From: a virus
Strand: one strand, 5' to 3'
Length of the DNA stretch: 32,670 bases
Virus genome (UHGV): UHGV-0203498
Shown here: positions 19,224-30,606 of the stretch, piece after piece
Position numbering within the stretch: the first letter of the stretch is position 1
Layout of the letters: each line of letters begins with the position of its first letter
Position numbers and translations under genes: made by a program
Notes under the pieces: generated by a model
The model's database searches: none
What the model was told of the DNA's origin: nothing
What the model saw: only the letters and a program-made list of their open reading frames with translations

Positions 19224-21488
19224 TTAATCTTTCAAGTCATCGTCTGTCGCCGAAAGCGTGATTGGGATATCCGATTTGATAACCAAATTAGACGACCCAT
19301 ATATGGCCCCGGTGTGTGGATCTGTGTAAAAACCGAGCACGCCGCGCTCGACCATATCGTCAATTGCCTTCGTCGATGTGCCACCTTTCGCGAGTCCCGC
19401 CTGGCGGACAATTGCCGATTTACTGAATCCAGTATGATCCGGGTTATCTTCCATCAGTTTTTCCAGTGCCGCATAAAGCACTTTTTCTTTTTCTGTGCGC
19501 GGTCCGGCGGTGTTCTCTTCCTTAACTGCGGCTTTGCCCGCGGCCTTCGCCTGTTCGATAGCGAACGGTGCCAGGGCAACCGGTACGAGGTAGAGAGTCT
19601 CGTCGCGTGGCGTGGAGGCGATAGGCTTGACGTCCCAACCGGCAACCACATCGCCGAAGTCAGGCCCAGCGCTGGTGGACTGGTGGGCTTCGAACGCCTC
19701 GGACTTGCGGAGATCCACCTTCACCTTGCACTTGAGCAGGACGAAGCCGCGCGGCGCTTGCTTGATGCCGTTACGAGACTTCTCGTGGTACAGGTTGAGT
19801 TGGCCTGGCTGGTTGTCGTCTGGCTGTTCCAGGAAGAACGCAGAATCGACAGCACCATGAAGCGCGCCGGATCCGCGTGGCGTTCTGCTGCCGTTTGCAC
19901 CTTTAGCCGGGTGGTGGATGACGCCCGCGCTGCCGCCTGTATTTTCCGCAATGGCCTTCAGCGCCTTGACTACCTCGCCCATATCGCTGGCGTTGTTCTC
20001 GTCGAATGGCTTGGCATCGGCGGACCGCAGCGCGACAGTCTGGTTGAGTGAGTCGAATGCCACCAGGCCAACCGGTTCGCCATTCGCGGTGCGATTGATA
20101 AAGCTGATAACTTCGCGCAGGCCAGACTTGCTGGTGATATCCCAGCCGCGTGACTGCAGGTCTATAATGTGCAACTTGTCCAGGTCGTGCTCGTATTTGA
20201 TCTGCAATGCTTCCTTACGCTGGCTGGAGGCTTCGCCGCCTTCCGCATCGAAATAGAAGCAATGGGACTGGACGACCTTCGCACCGCCAAACGGGATACC
20301 AGCGGCAACCGCGCCCATCTGACCCAGCACGTAGAACGACTTACCGATGTTCGACTCACCGGCGAGATACCAGGTCGATTTGAAGTTAACCAGGCCTTCG
20401 ATGATCGGGTCGTGTTTACTGAACAGGGCGACCGGCTCGTTGTCCAGGTCTGCATCTGTGCATTCGCCGAACTCGTCGCCGTCACCGACCGCGTCCACGA
20501 TATGCTCGTAGCATGATTCCACTTCCTCGTCGTCCAGCCCCGGAAGGATGGCGGCGATCTGCTTACGTGACATGTTGTGCGGTTCGACGTTCAGGTGGTC
20601 CGGGATACCGATCAGACGCAGCGCCAGGTGCTGGTGTTTATTCAGTTCTGAGCAACACTCGTTACCGGTGTGCATACACTTGAAACGGATCTCGCCATCC
20701 TTAACCAGGATTGCCGTTGACCCTTCGCCACTGTGCAGGTGTTCGTTAGGACACGGCACTTCATAGCCGCGACCGGATGACAGGGGTTCAAAGCCCGCCT
20801 GGAAGCACCAGTCCAGGATGCCGTCTGCCACACCGCCGTCGCCCTGGGTCAGTTCGTGGCGTACTTCCTCTTTCTCAACTCCCAGCTTGTCAGCCAGGCG
20901 GAGCAGACGACGGACGCGGGCACGCTTGCCGTAGTGGCACTTAACGACAGCCTGCTGGTGCGGCAGGTACATAAGGCGGTTTGTGTCTTTCGTGCAATCG
21001 TCGAAAGCCACATCAGACAGGCCCAGTTGGTCTAACAACGCATACTGGACGCGGCCCAGGTCTTCCGCCGGTACAGGCTTGTCAGTGAGCACCAGGAAAC
21101 GAGCGCAACGCGTGCCACCTTTCAGCGGGTGTCGGTCGCCGGTAGTGGTGTGGAAGACGTGCTCCAGTCCCGCGTCGATGAACGCCTTACGGCAGCGGCG
21201 TAAGGTGCTGGTGTCGGTGCGGTCAATATCGAAGAACAGGATCGAGCGGTCCACCGCACTGGTCTTACGACGCAATCCGTCACGGGTATACGCCACTATG
21301 CCATCAGCCTTACGCTTGCGGCGCGCATACTCGGCTTTATCTTCCGTCTTGTTGATATGCACCGACGATATTTCTTTCGCATCTTTGATAAATTCGAAAA
21401 ATTCATCAGTGGTCATCTGGAAGTTTTCCGCCCTGGCTTTTTCGCCTTTTTTAGCGGGTTTTGTTACAGCGAATTTAATTAAGCTCAT
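19224..21488 (-). CDS. DNA primase / helicase (primase-polymerase-like N-terminal domain, zinc-binding middle region, P-loop ATPase C-terminal domain)
   Basis: N-terminal ILFFDIDRTD (hhhhDhD primase-polymerase-like motif); Cys/His cluster CPNEHLH...CMHTGNECC; Walker A AGESNIGKS and Walker B-like GLVAFDSLN. Confidence 0.8.
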   Translation of the reverse strand: MSLIKFAVTKPAKKGEKARAENFQMTTDEFFEFIKDAKEISSVHINKTEDKAEYARRKRKADGIVAYTRDGLRRKTSAVDRSILFFDIDRTDTSTLRRCRKAFIDAGLEHVFHTTTGDRHPLKGGTRCARFLVLTDKPVPAEDLGRVQYALLDQLGLSDVAFDDCTKDTNRLMYLPHQQAVVKCHYGKRARVRRLLRLADKLGVEKEEVRHELTQGDGGVADGILDWCFQAGFEPLSSGRGYEVPCPNEHLHSGEGSTAILVKDGEIRFKCMHTGNECCSELNKHQHLALRLIGIPDHLNVEPHNMSRKQIAAILPGLDDEEVESCYEHIVDAVGDGDEFGECTDADLDNEPVALFSKHDPIIEGLVNFKSTWYLAGESNIGKSFYVLGQMGAVAAGIPFGGAKVVQSHCFYFDAEGGEASSQRKEALQIKYEHDLDKLHIIDLQSRGWDITSKSGLREVISFINRTANGEPVGLVAFDSLNQTVALRSADAKPFDENNASDMGEVVKALKAIAENTGGSAGVIHHPAKGANGSRTPRGSGALHGAVDSAFFLEQPDDNQPGQLNLYHEKSRNGIKQAPRGFVLLKCKVKVDLRKSEAFEAHQSTSAGPDFGDVVAGWDVKPIASTPRDETLYLVPVALAPFAIEQAKAAGKAAVKEENTAGPRTEKEKVLYAALEKLMEDNPDHTGFSKSAIVRQAGLAKGGTSTKAIDDMVERGVLGFYTDPHTGAIYGSSNLVIKSDIPITLSATDDDLKD

Positions 21489-26024: not shown

Positions 26025-28312
26025 AAGACTTCGAACGCCTGTTTCTCGACACCGAGACATTCAGCGAGGTGGACCTGAAGAAAGTCGGGGCGTACGCCTA
26101 CGCAGAACACCCATCGACCGAGATTATGATCTGCACCTACGCCATCGACGAGGGCCGCGTGCAGACATGGGACGCCACTGAATCCCCCACAATGCCGCGT
26201 GAACTGCGCAAGGCGCTCCGCCAGGTATCCCGCAAGAAAGCAAAAATCGTGATGGCTAACGGCCTCCTGTTTGACCGCCTGGTTATCAGTGAGAAGTGGG
26301 GAATCGACCTGCCGGTAAGCCAGATCGAAGACACCATGATTATGGCCTTCCGCCACGCGCTGCCAGGTAGCCTCGATATGCAGTGCCAGGTACTGGGCGT
26401 TGACGCAGAGCACGCGAAGGATAAGGCGGGTAAGGCGCTGATCAAACGGTTCTGTAAGCCTACCCCTAAGACCTACAAAATCCGCCGTTACACGCGCGAG
26501 ACGCACCCTGAAGAGTGGGCTAAATTCCTGCGCTATGCCGCGCTGGATATTGTTGCTATGCGTGAAGTCTACTGGCGCATACCAGACTGGGGCAACACGC
26601 CGAAGGAAGACGAAATCCTGCGCATCGACCAGATGATTAACGACCGAGGCTTCTATGTGGACGTTGACCTGGCGAACGCCGCGATCAAGGCGGTGCAGGC
26701 GCATAAGGAAGAATTGAAGGAAGAGGCATGGGAGCGGTTTGGCGGCAAGCTGACCGGCAACGACTTCCTGCCGATTCTGCGTGATATTGCCCCGGCGTTC
26801 ACTATTCACAACGCGCAGAAATCCACGCTGAACGACTTGCTCGAAGACCCGGACTTCCCTGATGAGGGCAAAGCGCTGATTGAGATGCGTCTCGGTGCAT
26901 CATCAACGGCATCGACTAAGTACAATCCGCTCGTCAATGGCCTGTCTGCCGATGGTCGCCGCCGTGGCTGTCTTCAGTATGGCGGGGCGAAGCGCACACT
27001 GCGTTGGGCCGGTAAAGGCTTTCAGCCTCAAAACCTGGCACGAGGCGAGTACAGCGATGACCACGAAGGGAAGATTAAACGCCGCGAGGGCGAAAGCGAC
27101 GTCTCGTTTTGGGTCCGGTCGCACATGCTCACCAACGGCATCAACTCCCTGTTACGCGGTACAGCGCACTGGGCATATGACATATCGAAGCTGACCGCCT
27201 CGACCGTTCGCGGGTGCATTATCCCTGCTAAGGGCAAGAAGTTTGTCGTAGCGGACTATTCAAACGTCGAAGGGCGCGGGCTTGCCTGGATCGCGGGCGA
27301 GAAAACTGCGCTCATGGTGTTTAAAGCCGGTCGTGATATTTATTGCGAGACAGCCGGTAAGATGTTTGGCCTCGACCCGGACTACATCAAAGCCAACCGC
27401 AAGGATTTACGCCAGATCGGCAAGGCTTGCGAGCTTGGCCTGGGCTATGGGGGTGGTGTCGCGGCGTTCTTGCAGTTCGCCAAAAACCTGGGCCTGGACC
27501 TGTACGCGATGGCGGAAGTCATGAAGGGCACATTCCCCGATCACATTTGGGCGGCGGCGAAACGCGGCTATGAGTACGCCCGCATTAACGAAGCGAAGCG
27601 CCCGCCGAAGCCTGGCAAGAAAGACGAGCGCCCAACCTACATACTGCCGAAAAACGTATGGCTGACTTGTGACGCAATCAAACGTATGTGGCGCGAGGCT
27701 CACCCGAAGACGGTCACCTTTTGGGCCGAGCTTGAGGACGCGGTGTTGTGTGCAATCCGCAATCCGGGCAAAGCATACTGGGCTGGCGCTAACGTTCGCC
27801 CGGATGGCAGAAAAGCGCTCAAGATAGTGCGCACGAAGGCGAAGCACGACCCTACCTTCGACGAGGAGCGCGACGACCCGAACGCGGCTGGGTGGTGGCT
27901 TAAAATTGAGTTGCCGTCAGGGCGCATCATGAGCTACCCTGGCATCGCGCTGTCTGTCACGACCGAGATCGACGAAGACACCGGCAAGAAGCGAACCAGT
28001 ACCCGCATCAAATACCAGGGCGAGAATCAGACGACGCGTCAGTGGGGATTCCAGTACACCTACGGCGGCAAACTTACGGAGAACATCGTACAGGCGTTGT
28101 GCCGCGATATTCTCGCATGGTCCATGCCTGGCGTTGAAGCTGCGGGGTATGAAATCGTCCTGTCGGTGCATGATGAATTGATAACTGAAGTGCCAGACAC
28201 GGATGACTACACGACTGAAGAGCTTTGCGCGCTGATGTGCGACCTGCCTATTTGGGCGAAAGGGTTCCCACTTGCCGCAGAGGGCGACATTATGTACAGG
28301 TACAGGAAGTAA
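26021..28312 (+). CDS. Family A DNA polymerase with 3'-5' proofreading exonuclease domain
   Basis: Exonuclease motifs LFLDTETFS, MANGLLFD and YAALDI; polymerase motif A ADYSNVEGRG, motif B RQIGKACELGLGYGGG, motif C SVHDELI. Confidence 0.9.
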   Translation: MKDFERLFLDTETFSEVDLKKVGAYAYAEHPSTEIMICTYAIDEGRVQTWDATESPTMPRELRKALRQVSRKKAKIVMANGLLFDRLVISEKWGIDLPVSQIEDTMIMAFRHALPGSLDMQCQVLGVDAEHAKDKAGKALIKRFCKPTPKTYKIRRYTRETHPEEWAKFLRYAALDIVAMREVYWRIPDWGNTPKEDEILRIDQMINDRGFYVDVDLANAAIKAVQAHKEELKEEAWERFGGKLTGNDFLPILRDIAPAFTIHNAQKSTLNDLLEDPDFPDEGKALIEMRLGASSTASTKYNPLVNGLSADGRRRGCLQYGGAKRTLRWAGKGFQPQNLARGEYSDDHEGKIKRREGESDVSFWVRSHMLTNGINSLLRGTAHWAYDISKLTASTVRGCIIPAKGKKFVVADYSNVEGRGLAWIAGEKTALMVFKAGRDIYCETAGKMFGLDPDYIKANRKDLRQIGKACELGLGYGGGVAAFLQFAKNLGLDLYAMAEVMKGTFPDHIWAAAKRGYEYARINEAKRPPKPGKKDERPTYILPKNVWLTCDAIKRMWREAHPKTVTFWAELEDAVLCAIRNPGKAYWAGANVRPDGRKALKIVRTKAKHDPTFDEERDDPNAAGWWLKIELPSGRIMSYPGIALSVTTEIDEDTGKKRTSTRIKYQGENQTTRQWGFQYTYGGKLTENIVQALCRDILAWSMPGVEAAGYEIVLSVHDELITEVPDTDDYTTEELCALMCDLPIWAKGFPLAAEGDIMYRYRK

Positions 28313-28316
28313 GATT

Positions 28317-28649
28317 ATGAAAAAAGTAAAAGTAGACGTTTATAGATACGAGTTTTTCGTCTCGCCGTGCGCCGACGAGGTGGCGGCAAAATGCAAGCGG
28401 ATAACAGGGTATCAACCTGATAGCGACGATTTTAGCGCTAATGCCTTCGTCGTTTTTGGTAAAGGGACGTGCCTGGTCTGGATGCCCCCAACGGCAAGTA
28501 TTAACACGGTGGCACATGAGGCCACACACGTAGCGATGAATCTCATGCGGGACTGCGGTATTGCGCCTGACCTCCATAACCAGGAGGTTATGGCGTATTT
28601 AATCGGGTATATCGTCGGCGAGATAAACCGGGCAAGGAACGCACAATGA
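28317..28649 (+). CDS. Small HExxH-motif protein (putative zinc metallopeptidase-like)
   Basis: ATG at 28317 preceded by AGGAAG; motif VAHEATHVAMNL; about 110 aa. Confidence 0.5.
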   Translation: MKKVKVDVYRYEFFVSPCADEVAAKCKRITGYQPDSDDFSANAFVVFGKGTCLVWMPPTASINTVAHEATHVAMNLMRDCGIAPDLHNQEVMAYLIGYIVGEINRARNAQ

Positions 28650-28924
28650 CCCCAGAAGGCAAGATTCAAAGCTACCTGATGCGTCGGGTGAAAGCGGTGG
28701 GTGGATTCTGCCGCAAAGTGGCCTGGGAGGGGCGCGCAGGTGCGCCCGACCTGATTATCATCATCAACGGCATCATTGTATTCGTCGAAGTGAAGCGCCC
28801 AGGGGGAAAACCGAAGCCGCACCAGGTGCGAGAGCATGCGCGGATGGCCCGCCGCGGTGCTGACGTTCGCGTCATTGACAACATAGCCGACTGTGATTTA
28901 TTGGTTGCTGAATTGGTCGCATAG
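28646..28924 (+). CDS. VRR-NUC domain nuclease
   Basis: GAPDLIII...VFVEVKRPGGKPKPHQ matches the PD-(D/E)xK core of VRR-NUC domains; start coupled to the upstream stop (ATGA). Confidence 0.8.
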   Translation: MTPEGKIQSYLMRRVKAVGGFCRKVAWEGRAGAPDLIIIINGIIVFVEVKRPGGKPKPHQVREHARMARRGADVRVIDNIADCDLLVAELVA

Positions 28925-28953
28925 CGGTATAGTGTGCCGGTTAGGAGGATTTT

Positions 28954-29127
28954 ATGATTGAAGAAAAACGTTGTAGTAACTGCGGCTGTGTTAAGCCGCT
29001 ATCCCAGTTCCACAAATACACCGGAAAGACTGCGCGCAGTCCAGACGGGCATCGGGCCGAGTGCAAATCGTGCCGCAATAAGAAAGAGCGAGAACGGCAG
29101 CGCCGCTACCGCGCAGAACAAGAATAA
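28954..29127 (+). CDS. Small zinc-ribbon protein (57 aa)
   Basis: ATG at 28954 preceded by AGGAGG at 5-nt spacing; CSNCGC...CKSCRN four-Cys arrangement with a basic C-terminus. Preferred over the overlapping TTG-initiated ORF 28958..29173. Confidence 0.45.
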   Translation: MIEEKRCSNCGCVKPLSQFHKYTGKTARSPDGHRAECKSCRNKKERERQRRYRAEQE

Positions 29128-29169
29128 TCAACACGGCGGGCTTGTCCCGCCTAAAAAGGAACCGGAACA

Positions 29170-30606
29170 ATGAGTAAAAAGATGGCACGATTCCGACGCC
29201 GCGAATATCAGAAATTGATAACTGCGTTTATCCTCAAACATGAGCGCTGCAATATATGGGCGACAATGGGATCCGGCAAAACCGGCGCGACTATGTGGGC
29301 GCTGAACAAAATGTTCCAGACCGGTATCCTGTCCAGCCAGAAGGACCGCGTACTGGTGCTGGCCCCACTGCGTGTTGCATCCGGCACCTGGCCACCGGAG
29401 CAAGAAAAATGGCGATTCCCCGCACTGCTGGTCGTAGACGGCACCGGACCGGAGAAGGACCGCATTGCAGCGCTGGAGAGCGACGCTAACGTCGTTTGTG
29501 TCAATTATGATGTAGTTGAGTGGCTTGTCGAGTATTGCGGCGACGAGTGGCCCTTTACGGTCGTTGTTGCCGATGAATCCACTAAGCTGAAAGGCTACCG
29601 CAGCAAGCAGGGCAGTAAGCGCGCCCGCGCACTGGCGGCGATTGCGCATAAGCACGTCAAGCGCTGGATTAACCTTACAGGCACACCAGCCCCAAACGGA
29701 CTGAAAGATTTATGGGGGCAGACGTGGTTCGTCGACGGTGGCGAACGTCTCGGCAGCAGCTATAAGGCATTCACCGATCGCTGGTTTATTAGCAAGCCTG
29801 TTAAGCCTGGCAGCTTCACGATGCAGCACGCTCCGTTAAAGAACTCCGAGAAAGAAATACAACAACGTCTGTCAGACGTATCCCTAACCGTTGACGCGGC
29901 TGAATATTTCGGATGCGACAAGCCAATCTATACTCCGGTTATTGTGGACCTGCCGAAGAAAGCCCGCAAGATTTACGACCAGTTTGAGGACGAACTATTC
30001 GCCGAACTGGAAAGCGGAACGGTAGAGGCGGCAAACGCCGCAGCGAAAACCGTTAAGTGTCTCCAGCTTGCATCCGGTGCCGTATATAAGGTGGACGAAG
30101 ACGGCGAACGGACCGACGAGTGGGAGAAGATTCACGATGTCAAGCTGGACGCGCTGGAGAGTATCGTGGAGGAGTTGAACGGCGCGCCGTTGCTCGTTGC
30201 ATACCAGTACAAGCATGATCTGGCACGTCTCAAGAAGAAATTTCCGCACGGCGTTGCGATGGGTAAGGGTAAGCAGGGTATCAAGGATATGGAGGCGTGG
30301 AACAGGGGCGAGATTCCCATCATGTTCGCACACCCGGCATCCGCCGGTCATGGCCTTAACCTGCAGGACGGCGGTCATCATCTGGCTATCTTCTCTGACA
30401 CGTGGAACTATGAGCACTTTGCGCAGATTGTGGAGCGTATCGGGCCGGTCCGCCAGATGCAAGCCGGACACCCCAGACCGGTATTCGTCTACATTATCCA
30501 GGCGCGCGGGACACTGGACGAACTGGTGGCAGACCGCCGCGATAGTAAGCGCGATATCCAGGATGACTTGATGGAATACATGAAAGCTAAGAAGGGGCGC
30601 AAGTGA
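29170..30606 (+). CDS. SNF2-family (SF2) helicase
   Basis: Walker A ATMGSGKTG, Walker B VVVADESTKLK, motif III LTGTPAPNG, and C-terminal helicase motifs HPASAGHGLNLQ. Confidence 0.85.
   Translation: MSKKMARFRRREYQKLITAFILKHERCNIWATMGSGKTGATMWALNKMFQTGILSSQKDRVLVLAPLRVASGTWPPEQEKWRFPALLVVDGTGPEKDRIAALESDANVVCVNYDVVEWLVEYCGDEWPFTVVVADESTKLKGYRSKQGSKRARALAAIAHKHVKRWINLTGTPAPNGLKDLWGQTWFVDGGERLGSSYKAFTDRWFISKPVKPGSFTMQHAPLKNSEKEIQQRLSDVSLTVDAAEYFGCDKPIYTPVIVDLPKKARKIYDQFEDELFAELESGTVEAANAAAKTVKCLQLASGAVYKVDEDGERTDEWEKIHDVKLDALESIVEELNGAPLLVAYQYKHDLARLKKKFPHGVAMGKGKQGIKDMEAWNRGEIPIMFAHPASAGHGLNLQDGGHHLAIFSDTWNYEHFAQIVERIGPVRQMQAGHPRPVFVYIIQARGTLDELVADRRDSKRDIQDDLMEYMKAKKGRK

Follow-up and report, generated by a model that had tools for sequence, protein, structure and literature searches.

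In the virus genome UHGV-0203498 (32,670 nucleotides (nt); the whole stretch is called the window here), two small open reading frames (ORFs) compete for the same position directly before the gene of an SNF2-type ATPase/helicase. Comparison with related phages shows that the frame opened by ATG at 28954 and closed by TAA at 29125-29127 (28954..29127, + strand) is a real protein-coding gene under strong purifying selection, an ortholog of HK578 gp35, SO-1 gp35 and Bas83_0042 that encodes a zinc-finger protein of 57 amino acids (aa). The same comparison shows the TTG-initiated ORF (28958..29173, + strand, 71 aa), which we judged not to be a gene, to be a non-coding by-product in the +1 frame of the finger gene. 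An earlier reading of the window's letters, the original prediction, had favoured the zinc-finger frame over the TTG frame, and this preference was borne out by amino-acid conservation, substitution ratios, existing annotations and a protein family match. The features on which it was based were all present as described, i.e., the coordinates, the AGGAGG, the ATG frame with its four-Cys motif and basic tail, and the overlap of the TTG ORF with the helicase start.

On nucleotide identity the window is a Dhillonvirus, i.e., an HK578-like coliphage. The region is 86-92% identical to ~150 E. coli siphophages of this genus, among them HK578, SO-1, EP23 and the BASEL phages Bas83 and Bas85, and since the best identity is ~90% over 12.7 kb, the window represents a distinct lineage of a well-sampled genus. 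The finger gene is present in essentially all Dhillonviruses and conserved in ~160 Dhillonvirus records; 174 phage records hold it. More than 150 related E. coli phages already have it annotated, under inconsistent and mostly wrong names. The main value of the present result is annotation hygiene: the gene call in the window should be 28954-29127 and not 28958-29173.

Selection and annotation in related phages

The 174-nt segment of the finger gene was taken from 17 related loci, which gave 14 distinct nucleotide versions, 12 of them colinear. Among the colinear versions 39 columns are variable, and these are distributed 5/2/32 over codon positions 1/2/3 of the ATG frame. The protein encoded by this frame is nearly invariant over the 14 versions. 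The ratio of nonsynonymous to synonymous substitution rates (dN/dS; Nei-Gojobori, all pairs) is 0.039 in the ATG frame, whereas the TTG frame has 2.84 and the remaining frame 1.98. In the four loci of the L008 group and in L011, codon 12 of the TTG frame is a stop, and L016 has TAG instead of the TTG start codon. Conservation among relatives had been proposed as the check that could overturn the preference for the ATG frame; at the amino-acid level it is the ATG frame that the relatives conserve.

The annotations agree with the selection data. The ATG product matches PHROG 5558 (E value 1e-16), while Pfam and PHROG searches with the TTG product gave nothing significant. In each annotated record that we opened, the ATG frame is called (HK578, Bas83, EE09, SM_S22 and WF5505, and with a longer start JLBYU60), and the TTG frame is annotated in none of the inspected records. 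The window product is 89-98% identical in amino acids to the annotated Dhillonvirus coding sequences, and it belongs to the Dhillonvirus gp35 group, which is defined by a length of ~57 aa, at least 90% identity over the finger and a position on the same strand between the VRR-NUC nuclease gene and the SNF2 gene.

Codon usage, which had also been suggested as a check, did not separate the two frames. With log-odds trained on 22 long window genes, the ATG frame scored 0.106 and the TTG frame 0.047 per codon, values that are in both cases lower than is typical of in-frame windows but higher than in off-frame windows.

The ribosome-binding site is less informative than it appears. A Shine-Dalgarno sequence AGGAGG (28943..28948, + strand) can be read directly in the window, followed by the 5-nt spacer ATTTT before the ATG. 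In relatives, however, the leader reads ...GGTTAGCnCTAnCGAGGATTTTAGAAATG, and the window is shorter there, by 7 nt and 4 nt, than all relatives seen. The relatives thus have a GAGGA-type site (CGAGGA) with a 9-nt spacer, and it is the 7-nt and 4-nt loss in the leader (28925-28953) that produced the canonical AGGAGG with its 5-nt spacer. An exact-match search of IMG/VR for the window's AGGAGG leader found no match. The AGGAGG that was cited in support of the ATG frame is therefore present, but it is peculiar to the window.

Loss of gp34 and the helicase start

In relatives, the finger gene is separated from the helicase gene by a gene of 72 aa (HK578 gp34; PHROG 9291, E value 9e-47). Aligned to HK578 and Bas83, the window has gaps of ~188 nt and 24 nt here, and a deletion scar with the last codons and the stop of the lost gp34 remains at 29152..29177 (+ strand). 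Accordingly, the finger stop and the helicase ATGGCA are 54 nt apart in the window versus 265-266 nt in 12 IMG/VR relatives. No match to gp34 was found elsewhere in the window, and an exact-match search of IMG/VR and the JGI metagenomes gave no match to the deletion junction. Because gp34 is deleted, the TTG ORF is open as far as the helicase, and its 3' third (29128-29173) exists only through this deletion. An independent in-frame deletion of gp34 was seen in an IMG/VR locus (L009, IMGVR_UViG_2706796251_000001, 1209-1290), where the 12-codon ORF MTMKPKSGKKAK is left and the T-run of the terminator is kept. This indicates that phages can do without gp34 and that it was lost on more than one occasion.

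The terminator downstream of the finger gene is affected as well. A GC-rich hairpin, GGCGGG-CTTGT-CCCGCC, forms the terminator stem at 29135..29151 (+ strand; -11.9 kcal/mol when folded), and the record of phage WF5505 labels the corresponding element a "putative transcriptional terminator". Directly after the stem, HK578 and Bas83 read ATTTTT, whereas the window has TAAAAAGG and no T-run, so the gp34 deletion also took the T-run. A terminator scan of the window found no + strand terminator, and in the window phage transcripts probably continue into the helicase gene.

The SNF2-type ATPase/helicase (29170..30606, + strand; Pfam SNF2-rel_dom, E value 4e-11) starts in relatives at ATGGCACGATTCCGA (ATGGCA), which corresponds to 29182 in the window (MARF...). 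Four codons upstream, the window has an additional ATG at 29170 (MSKKMARF...) that is found only here; relatives have GTG at this position, inside gp34. By creating this new in-frame ATG, the gp34 deletion has made the helicase start ambiguous, and its annotation needs a note that the start is 29170 or 29182. The loss of gp34 and the terminator T-run and the tightened ribosome-binding site are the only window-specific features.

These results also bear on the alternative that the true gene is the TTG ORF (28958-29173), with translational coupling to the helicase, and that the zinc-finger frame arises by chance. The TTG ORF is the longer of the two (71 vs 57 codons), its stop TGA (29171-29173) overlaps the first in-frame ATG of the helicase (29170) as ATGA, the AGGAGG also stands 9 nt upstream of the TTG, and its codon-usage score is just slightly below that of the ATG frame. 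However, a dN/dS of 2.84, the stops in the L008 group and L011 and the TAG in L016 are at odds with a coding function, as are the missing family matches and annotations, and in relatives the frame cannot reach the helicase, since gp34 and the terminator intervene. The chance that the TTG ORF is the gene is therefore practically negligible, and we regard this alternative as already refuted by the comparative data.

Modelled fold of the 57-aa protein

The product of the ATG frame is MIEEKRCSNCGCVKPLSQFHKYTGKTARSPDGHRAECKSCRNKKERERQRRYRAEQE, which includes the peptides CSNCGCVKPLSQFHK and SPDGHR. It contains five Cys residues. C7 (28972-28974), C10 (28981-28983), C37 (29062-29064) and C40 (29071-29073) are the predicted ligands of the finger and are invariant in relatives, including 14 diverse orthologs, while C12 is variable. 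Nine of the tail residues 38-57 are Lys or Arg (K/R), and the whole protein has 16 K/R versus 8 Asp or Glu.

An AlphaFold2 model built with 14 sequences reached a mean confidence (pLDDT) of 89.7, compared to 80 for an earlier model with 6 sequences. It has strands at residues 4-6, 13-15, 19-21 and 33-37 and a helix at 38-56. In this model C7/C10 lie on a beta-hairpin knuckle, while C37/C40 lie at the junction of the last strand and the helix, which points to a treble-clef finger; in a classical zinc ribbon both CxxC knuckles lie on beta-hairpins, and this is not the case in the model. The four-Cys zinc ribbon with a basic tail described in the original prediction thus holds as a Cys4 finger and a basic tail, whereas the modelled fold differs from the classical zinc ribbon. 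Models and profile searches together support a single Cys4 treble-clef finger followed by a basic C-terminal helix. The best Foldseek match of the better model was the HNH-type restriction enzyme Hpy99I (probability 0.95, but E value 0.3), and a sequence search of the PDB gave only spurious matches, to designed WD40 proteins.

Relation to nuclease-associated fingers

A word-indexed protein search found only 5 close relatives of the protein. An exhaustive profile search with the alignment of these 5 retrieved 3786 representative proteins at E ≤ 1e-3, most of them 200-600 aa long with 2-8 copies of the module. When 104 of the 3786 were scanned against Pfam, the matches were Stc1 (65), DUF6510 (37), HNH (21), HNH_5 (19), Endonuclease_7 (10), HNH_4 (9) and Lar_restr_allev (1), with one instance each of Bro-N, T5orf172 and NUMOD3. 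The repeats follow the consensus K-x-C-x2-C-G-x2-K-P-L-x2-F-x7-D-G-x4-C-K-x-C. In PHROG, the next-best matches of the window protein fall on the N-terminal regions of families of endonuclease VII and HNH proteins, and a further match is to the C-terminus of the "sigma factor" PHROG 5767, an architecture seen in ~360-aa proteins of 120-145 kb IMG/VR phages. The profile searches thus support that the 57-aa protein is a free-standing copy of a Stc1-like finger that phage and bacterial nucleases of the HNH and endonuclease VII types carry N-terminally in 2-8 tandem copies.

The window protein shares with the Stc1-like repeats (PF12898/DUF6510), which the family profile retrieves at E values down to 1e-29, the pattern K-x-C-x2-C-G-x2-K-P-L-x2-F ... 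D-G-x4-C-K-x-C followed by a basic helix. It differs from the repeat nucleases in having a single finger and no nuclease domain: no HNH or Endonuclease_7 match was found in it with Pfam, and its 57 aa comprise the finger and the helix only, so that the beta-beta-alpha-metal catalytic domain of such enzymes is absent. The loop between the knuckles is 4 residues longer than in the repeats and has an invariant sequence of its own, HKYTG.TARSP. The Pfam model covers a tandem double finger with eight Cys, in contrast to the single finger here. Fission-yeast Stc1 is a eukaryotic protein-protein adaptor, and only the fold and the motif are in common with it.

The stand-alone proteins, 54-82 aa long, form a subfamily with a basic tail and a longer loop that hardly varies, EFHKYTG.TARSPDG.RA.CK.CRN; in the 57-aa protein this loop is seen as FHKYTG.TARSPDG.RA. 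Compared to HK578 gp35, SO-1 gp35 and Bas83_0042, the window gene has the same length, frame, position after VRR-NUC and downstream hairpin, and it differs in its AGGAGG with the shorter spacer and in the deletion of gp34, by which it comes to abut the helicase gene. It neatly illustrates how a zinc finger known from nucleases can persist as an independent, strongly constrained protein. In one IMG/VR locus (L015, IMGVR_UViG_3300045988_003101, ~1640-1700), the basic tail contains a tandem duplication of 24 nt, CGCCGCTATCGTGAAGAACGNNAG, by which the finger protein is extended to 65 aa.

Genomic position across phages

The subfamily alignment found 77 IMG/VR loci. Wherever the neighbours of a short stand-alone form could be recognised, it is encoded on their strand, downstream of PolA and VRR-NUC and upstream of SNF2, with PolA identities down to ~61-66% and a spacing to the helicase from 75 to ~1100 nt. 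The longer matches (110-401 aa) among these loci are without replication-module neighbours. A same-strand stand-alone finger between or adjoining PolA/VRR-NUC and SNF2 occurs in Dhillonvirus, in Eiauvirus, in Smarc3, in several IMG/VR lineages and in a Logan contig, where the order is 78 aa, finger, 85 aa and then SNF2. In a more distant contig the order is PolA, finger, 56 aa and then Nmad5, with no SNF2 nearby.

The finger gene is not called in all of these genomes. It is unannotated in Edwardsiella phage eiAU-183 (NC_023555, 2435-2665) and in Serratia phage Smarc3 (2438-2659). In eiAU a separate, free-standing HNH endonuclease gene lies directly 3' of the finger gene, and its annotated start overlaps the finger gene. 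We considered whether the two are a split or frameshifted fusion and rejected this, as the two lie side by side in different frames, and the HNH gene has a plausible start where the finger gene stops.

Jerseyvirus SETP13 (Salmonella phage, 1193-2100) and the Kagunavirus-like K-02 (Escherichia phage, 573-2010) have helicases ~65% identical, a VRR-NUC gene and a gp34-like gene, and the finger gene is absent from their VRR-NUC/SNF2 slot. In K-02 a DNA methyltransferase is inserted in this slot, which is a hot spot for small variable genes. The absence from SETP13 and K-02 implies that the finger gene is an accessory occupant of a variable slot rather than a partner that the helicase or nuclease requires.

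A related module stands close by in SM_S22. A 200-aa gene labelled "endonuclease VII" (5-607 of the SM_S22 locus) lies between PolA and VRR-NUC, in the slot that a 110/125-aa ORF occupies in the window. It carries two copies of the finger and is found two genes upstream of the finger gene, and its second finger matches the window protein with an E value of 8e-5. No Pfam match was found for this two-finger protein at E ≤ 0.01. It looks like a mobile nuclease gene bearing the same finger module.

Conflicting names

At least five GenBank names, which contradict one another, are in use for the one 57-aa product: hypothetical protein, Lar-like restriction alleviation, HNH-endonuclease, kilA anti-repressor and (putative) meiotic chromosome segregation protein. 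The HNH-endonuclease label, which stands in the EE09 record, is unsupported, as the 57 aa hold no nuclease domain, and no Pfam or PHROG match backs the kilA anti-repressor or the meiotic chromosome segregation name. These stray names probably stem from BLAST matches to this finger in larger proteins. In the literature we found no functional study of the finger protein, and "Lar-like restriction alleviation" appears there only as an automatic label.

Possible function

The overall explanation that we favour, with moderate confidence, is that the gene is real, that its product is a single nuclease-type finger, and that it serves as a non-essential accessory DNA-binding factor. The gene would be expressed together with the same-strand genes of DNA polymerase I, VRR-NUC and SNF2, and the finger would bind one Zn2+. 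The finger and the basic helix may then bind nucleic acid, most likely DNA, as suggested by the net charge and by the association of the module with nucleases and DNA-binding domains. With no catalytic domain of its own, the protein would act as an accessory factor in phage replication and recombination that the phage can do without.

Several observations weigh against this explanation. The codon usage of the ATG frame is atypical for the genome, with 0.106 log-odds per codon versus 0.357 ± 0.138 in known genes. The window protein alone reaches no Pfam threshold; DUF6510 is matched only below its cut-off (E value 0.093, 13.1 bits vs 26.4), and Stc1 does not appear at E ≤ 1. The structure searches gave no significant fold match. 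DNA binding is suggested by domain association and charge, and treble-clef fingers such as the zinc-binding domain of ClpX and CsfB are protein-protein modules. Moreover, the absence of the gene from the slot in related genera makes a core role in replication unlikely, and in lytic phages such variable slots are often occupied by genes for host takeover or anti-defence.

The original prediction had suggested a regulator or a helicase or primase cofactor. An obligate helicase cofactor is argued against by SETP13 and K-02. A role as a zinc domain acting in trans for the primase was set aside, as the 754-aa primase-helicase (19224-21488, minus strand) has a Cys/His cluster of its own. As a regulator, the protein would be a small zinc-finger factor that contacts host RNA polymerase or a sigma factor, like P2 Ogr, P4 Delta or the anti-sigma CsfB, and times middle or late transcription. 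P2 Ogr and P4 Delta are small phage Cys4 zinc-finger late-gene activators without other domains. The same finger also forms the C-terminus of the proteins that match PHROG 5767, and no phage RNA polymerase gene was noticed in the window, so that regulators of the host enzyme would be expected. However, no Ogr/Delta or other regulator family is listed by Pfam for the window protein at E ≤ 1; Ogr and Delta, compared by Pfam alone, are an analogy only, with no sequence match and a different genomic position. The structural scores are not significant, and the gene lies inside the replication cluster and not at a module boundary and is missing from the slot in related genera, so we consider a regulator unlikely. 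An adaptor or cofactor that binds the neighbouring SNF2 ATPase or VRR-NUC nuclease would fit the position directly between the two genes, which is conserved in several genera, and the invariant 17-residue loop suggests a specific interaction surface. Yet the Jerseyvirus and Kagunavirus-like phages keep both presumed partners without the finger gene in the slot, and in the distant contig the finger follows PolA with no SNF2 nearby; this role appears equally improbable.

A protein that shields phage DNA from type I restriction, as the Lar-like label implies, would suit a variable slot typical of accessory and anti-defence genes. The best PHROG match, phrog_5558, is named "Lar-like restriction alleviation protein", and RefSeq and Pharokka records carry the same label. 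The match, however, spans only positions 62-113 of a 130-position profile, the Pfam family Lar_restr_allev (PF14354) is not matched by the window protein even at E ≤ 1, and only 1 of the 104 family members scanned matches it. Lar, now called RalR (b1348), comes from the Rac prophage and bears the annotation of an endodeoxyribonuclease toxin that has a small RNA (sRNA) antitoxin as its partner. Both proteins are small (57 vs 64 aa), phage-borne and Cys4, and their first knuckles, K-x-C-x2-CGC, are similar, but BLASTP aligns 8 of 21 residues at the first CxxC only (pairwise E value 0.01), with no significant similarity beyond it. The knuckles are 26 residues apart in the window protein versus 17 in Lar, the C-terminal ExxERWNKR helix of Lar is replaced by a K/R-rich helix, and no counterpart of the toxin/sRNA-antitoxin pairing was seen here. 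In direct comparison with Lar the label is thus not supported, and we regard such a function as very unlikely. Still less credible is that the gene is a functionless remnant of a decaying homing endonuclease with fingers and HNH, of which the nuclease domain was lost. Fingers of this type are typical of HNH and endonuclease VII enzymes, in eiAU a free HNH gene immediately follows the finger gene, and the two-finger "endonuclease VII" gene lies nearby in SM_S22. But the selection data (dN/dS 0.04) already contradict decay, length and start are intact across genera that share just ~60-65% PolA identity, the stand-alone proteins have their own conserved loop that is absent from the nuclease-linked repeats, and the eiAU HNH ORF is a separate gene in another frame and not a split fusion.

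A role beyond that of a passive DNA-binding module can also be proposed. The stand-alone subfamily (invariant loop FHKY...RS.DG.R..CK.CR) might direct or restrain VRR-NUC or SNF2 at branched DNA, or act as a minimal decoy against host defence, having been domesticated from the targeting fingers of homing endonucleases. We see this as conceivable but unlikely. If true, it would give a first function to a finger that is found in thousands of phage and bacterial nucleases.

Neighbouring genes

The upstream neighbour of the finger gene is the VRR-NUC nuclease gene (28646..28924, + strand; Pfam VRR_NUC, E value 4e-5, above the curated cut-off), whose ortholog in relatives is labelled endonuclease or Holliday junction resolvase. 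A scan of 28000-30000 against Rfam gave nothing above threshold. A sub-threshold match to the archaeal C/D-box sRNA sR3 at 28166-28237, inside PolA, scored 20.5 bits versus a gathering score of 41 and is almost certainly due to chance.

Between PolA and VRR-NUC, the longest ORF (28272-28649) opens at TTG 28272 and overlaps the end of PolA. Its HK578 ortholog is 333 nt long, which implies a start at ATG 28317 (MKKVKV...) in the window. The product has a weak match to a thermolysin-family Pfam model (E value 0.004, below the cut-off) and an HExxH-like motif, AHEATH, which reads AHECTH in the Smarc3 counterpart.

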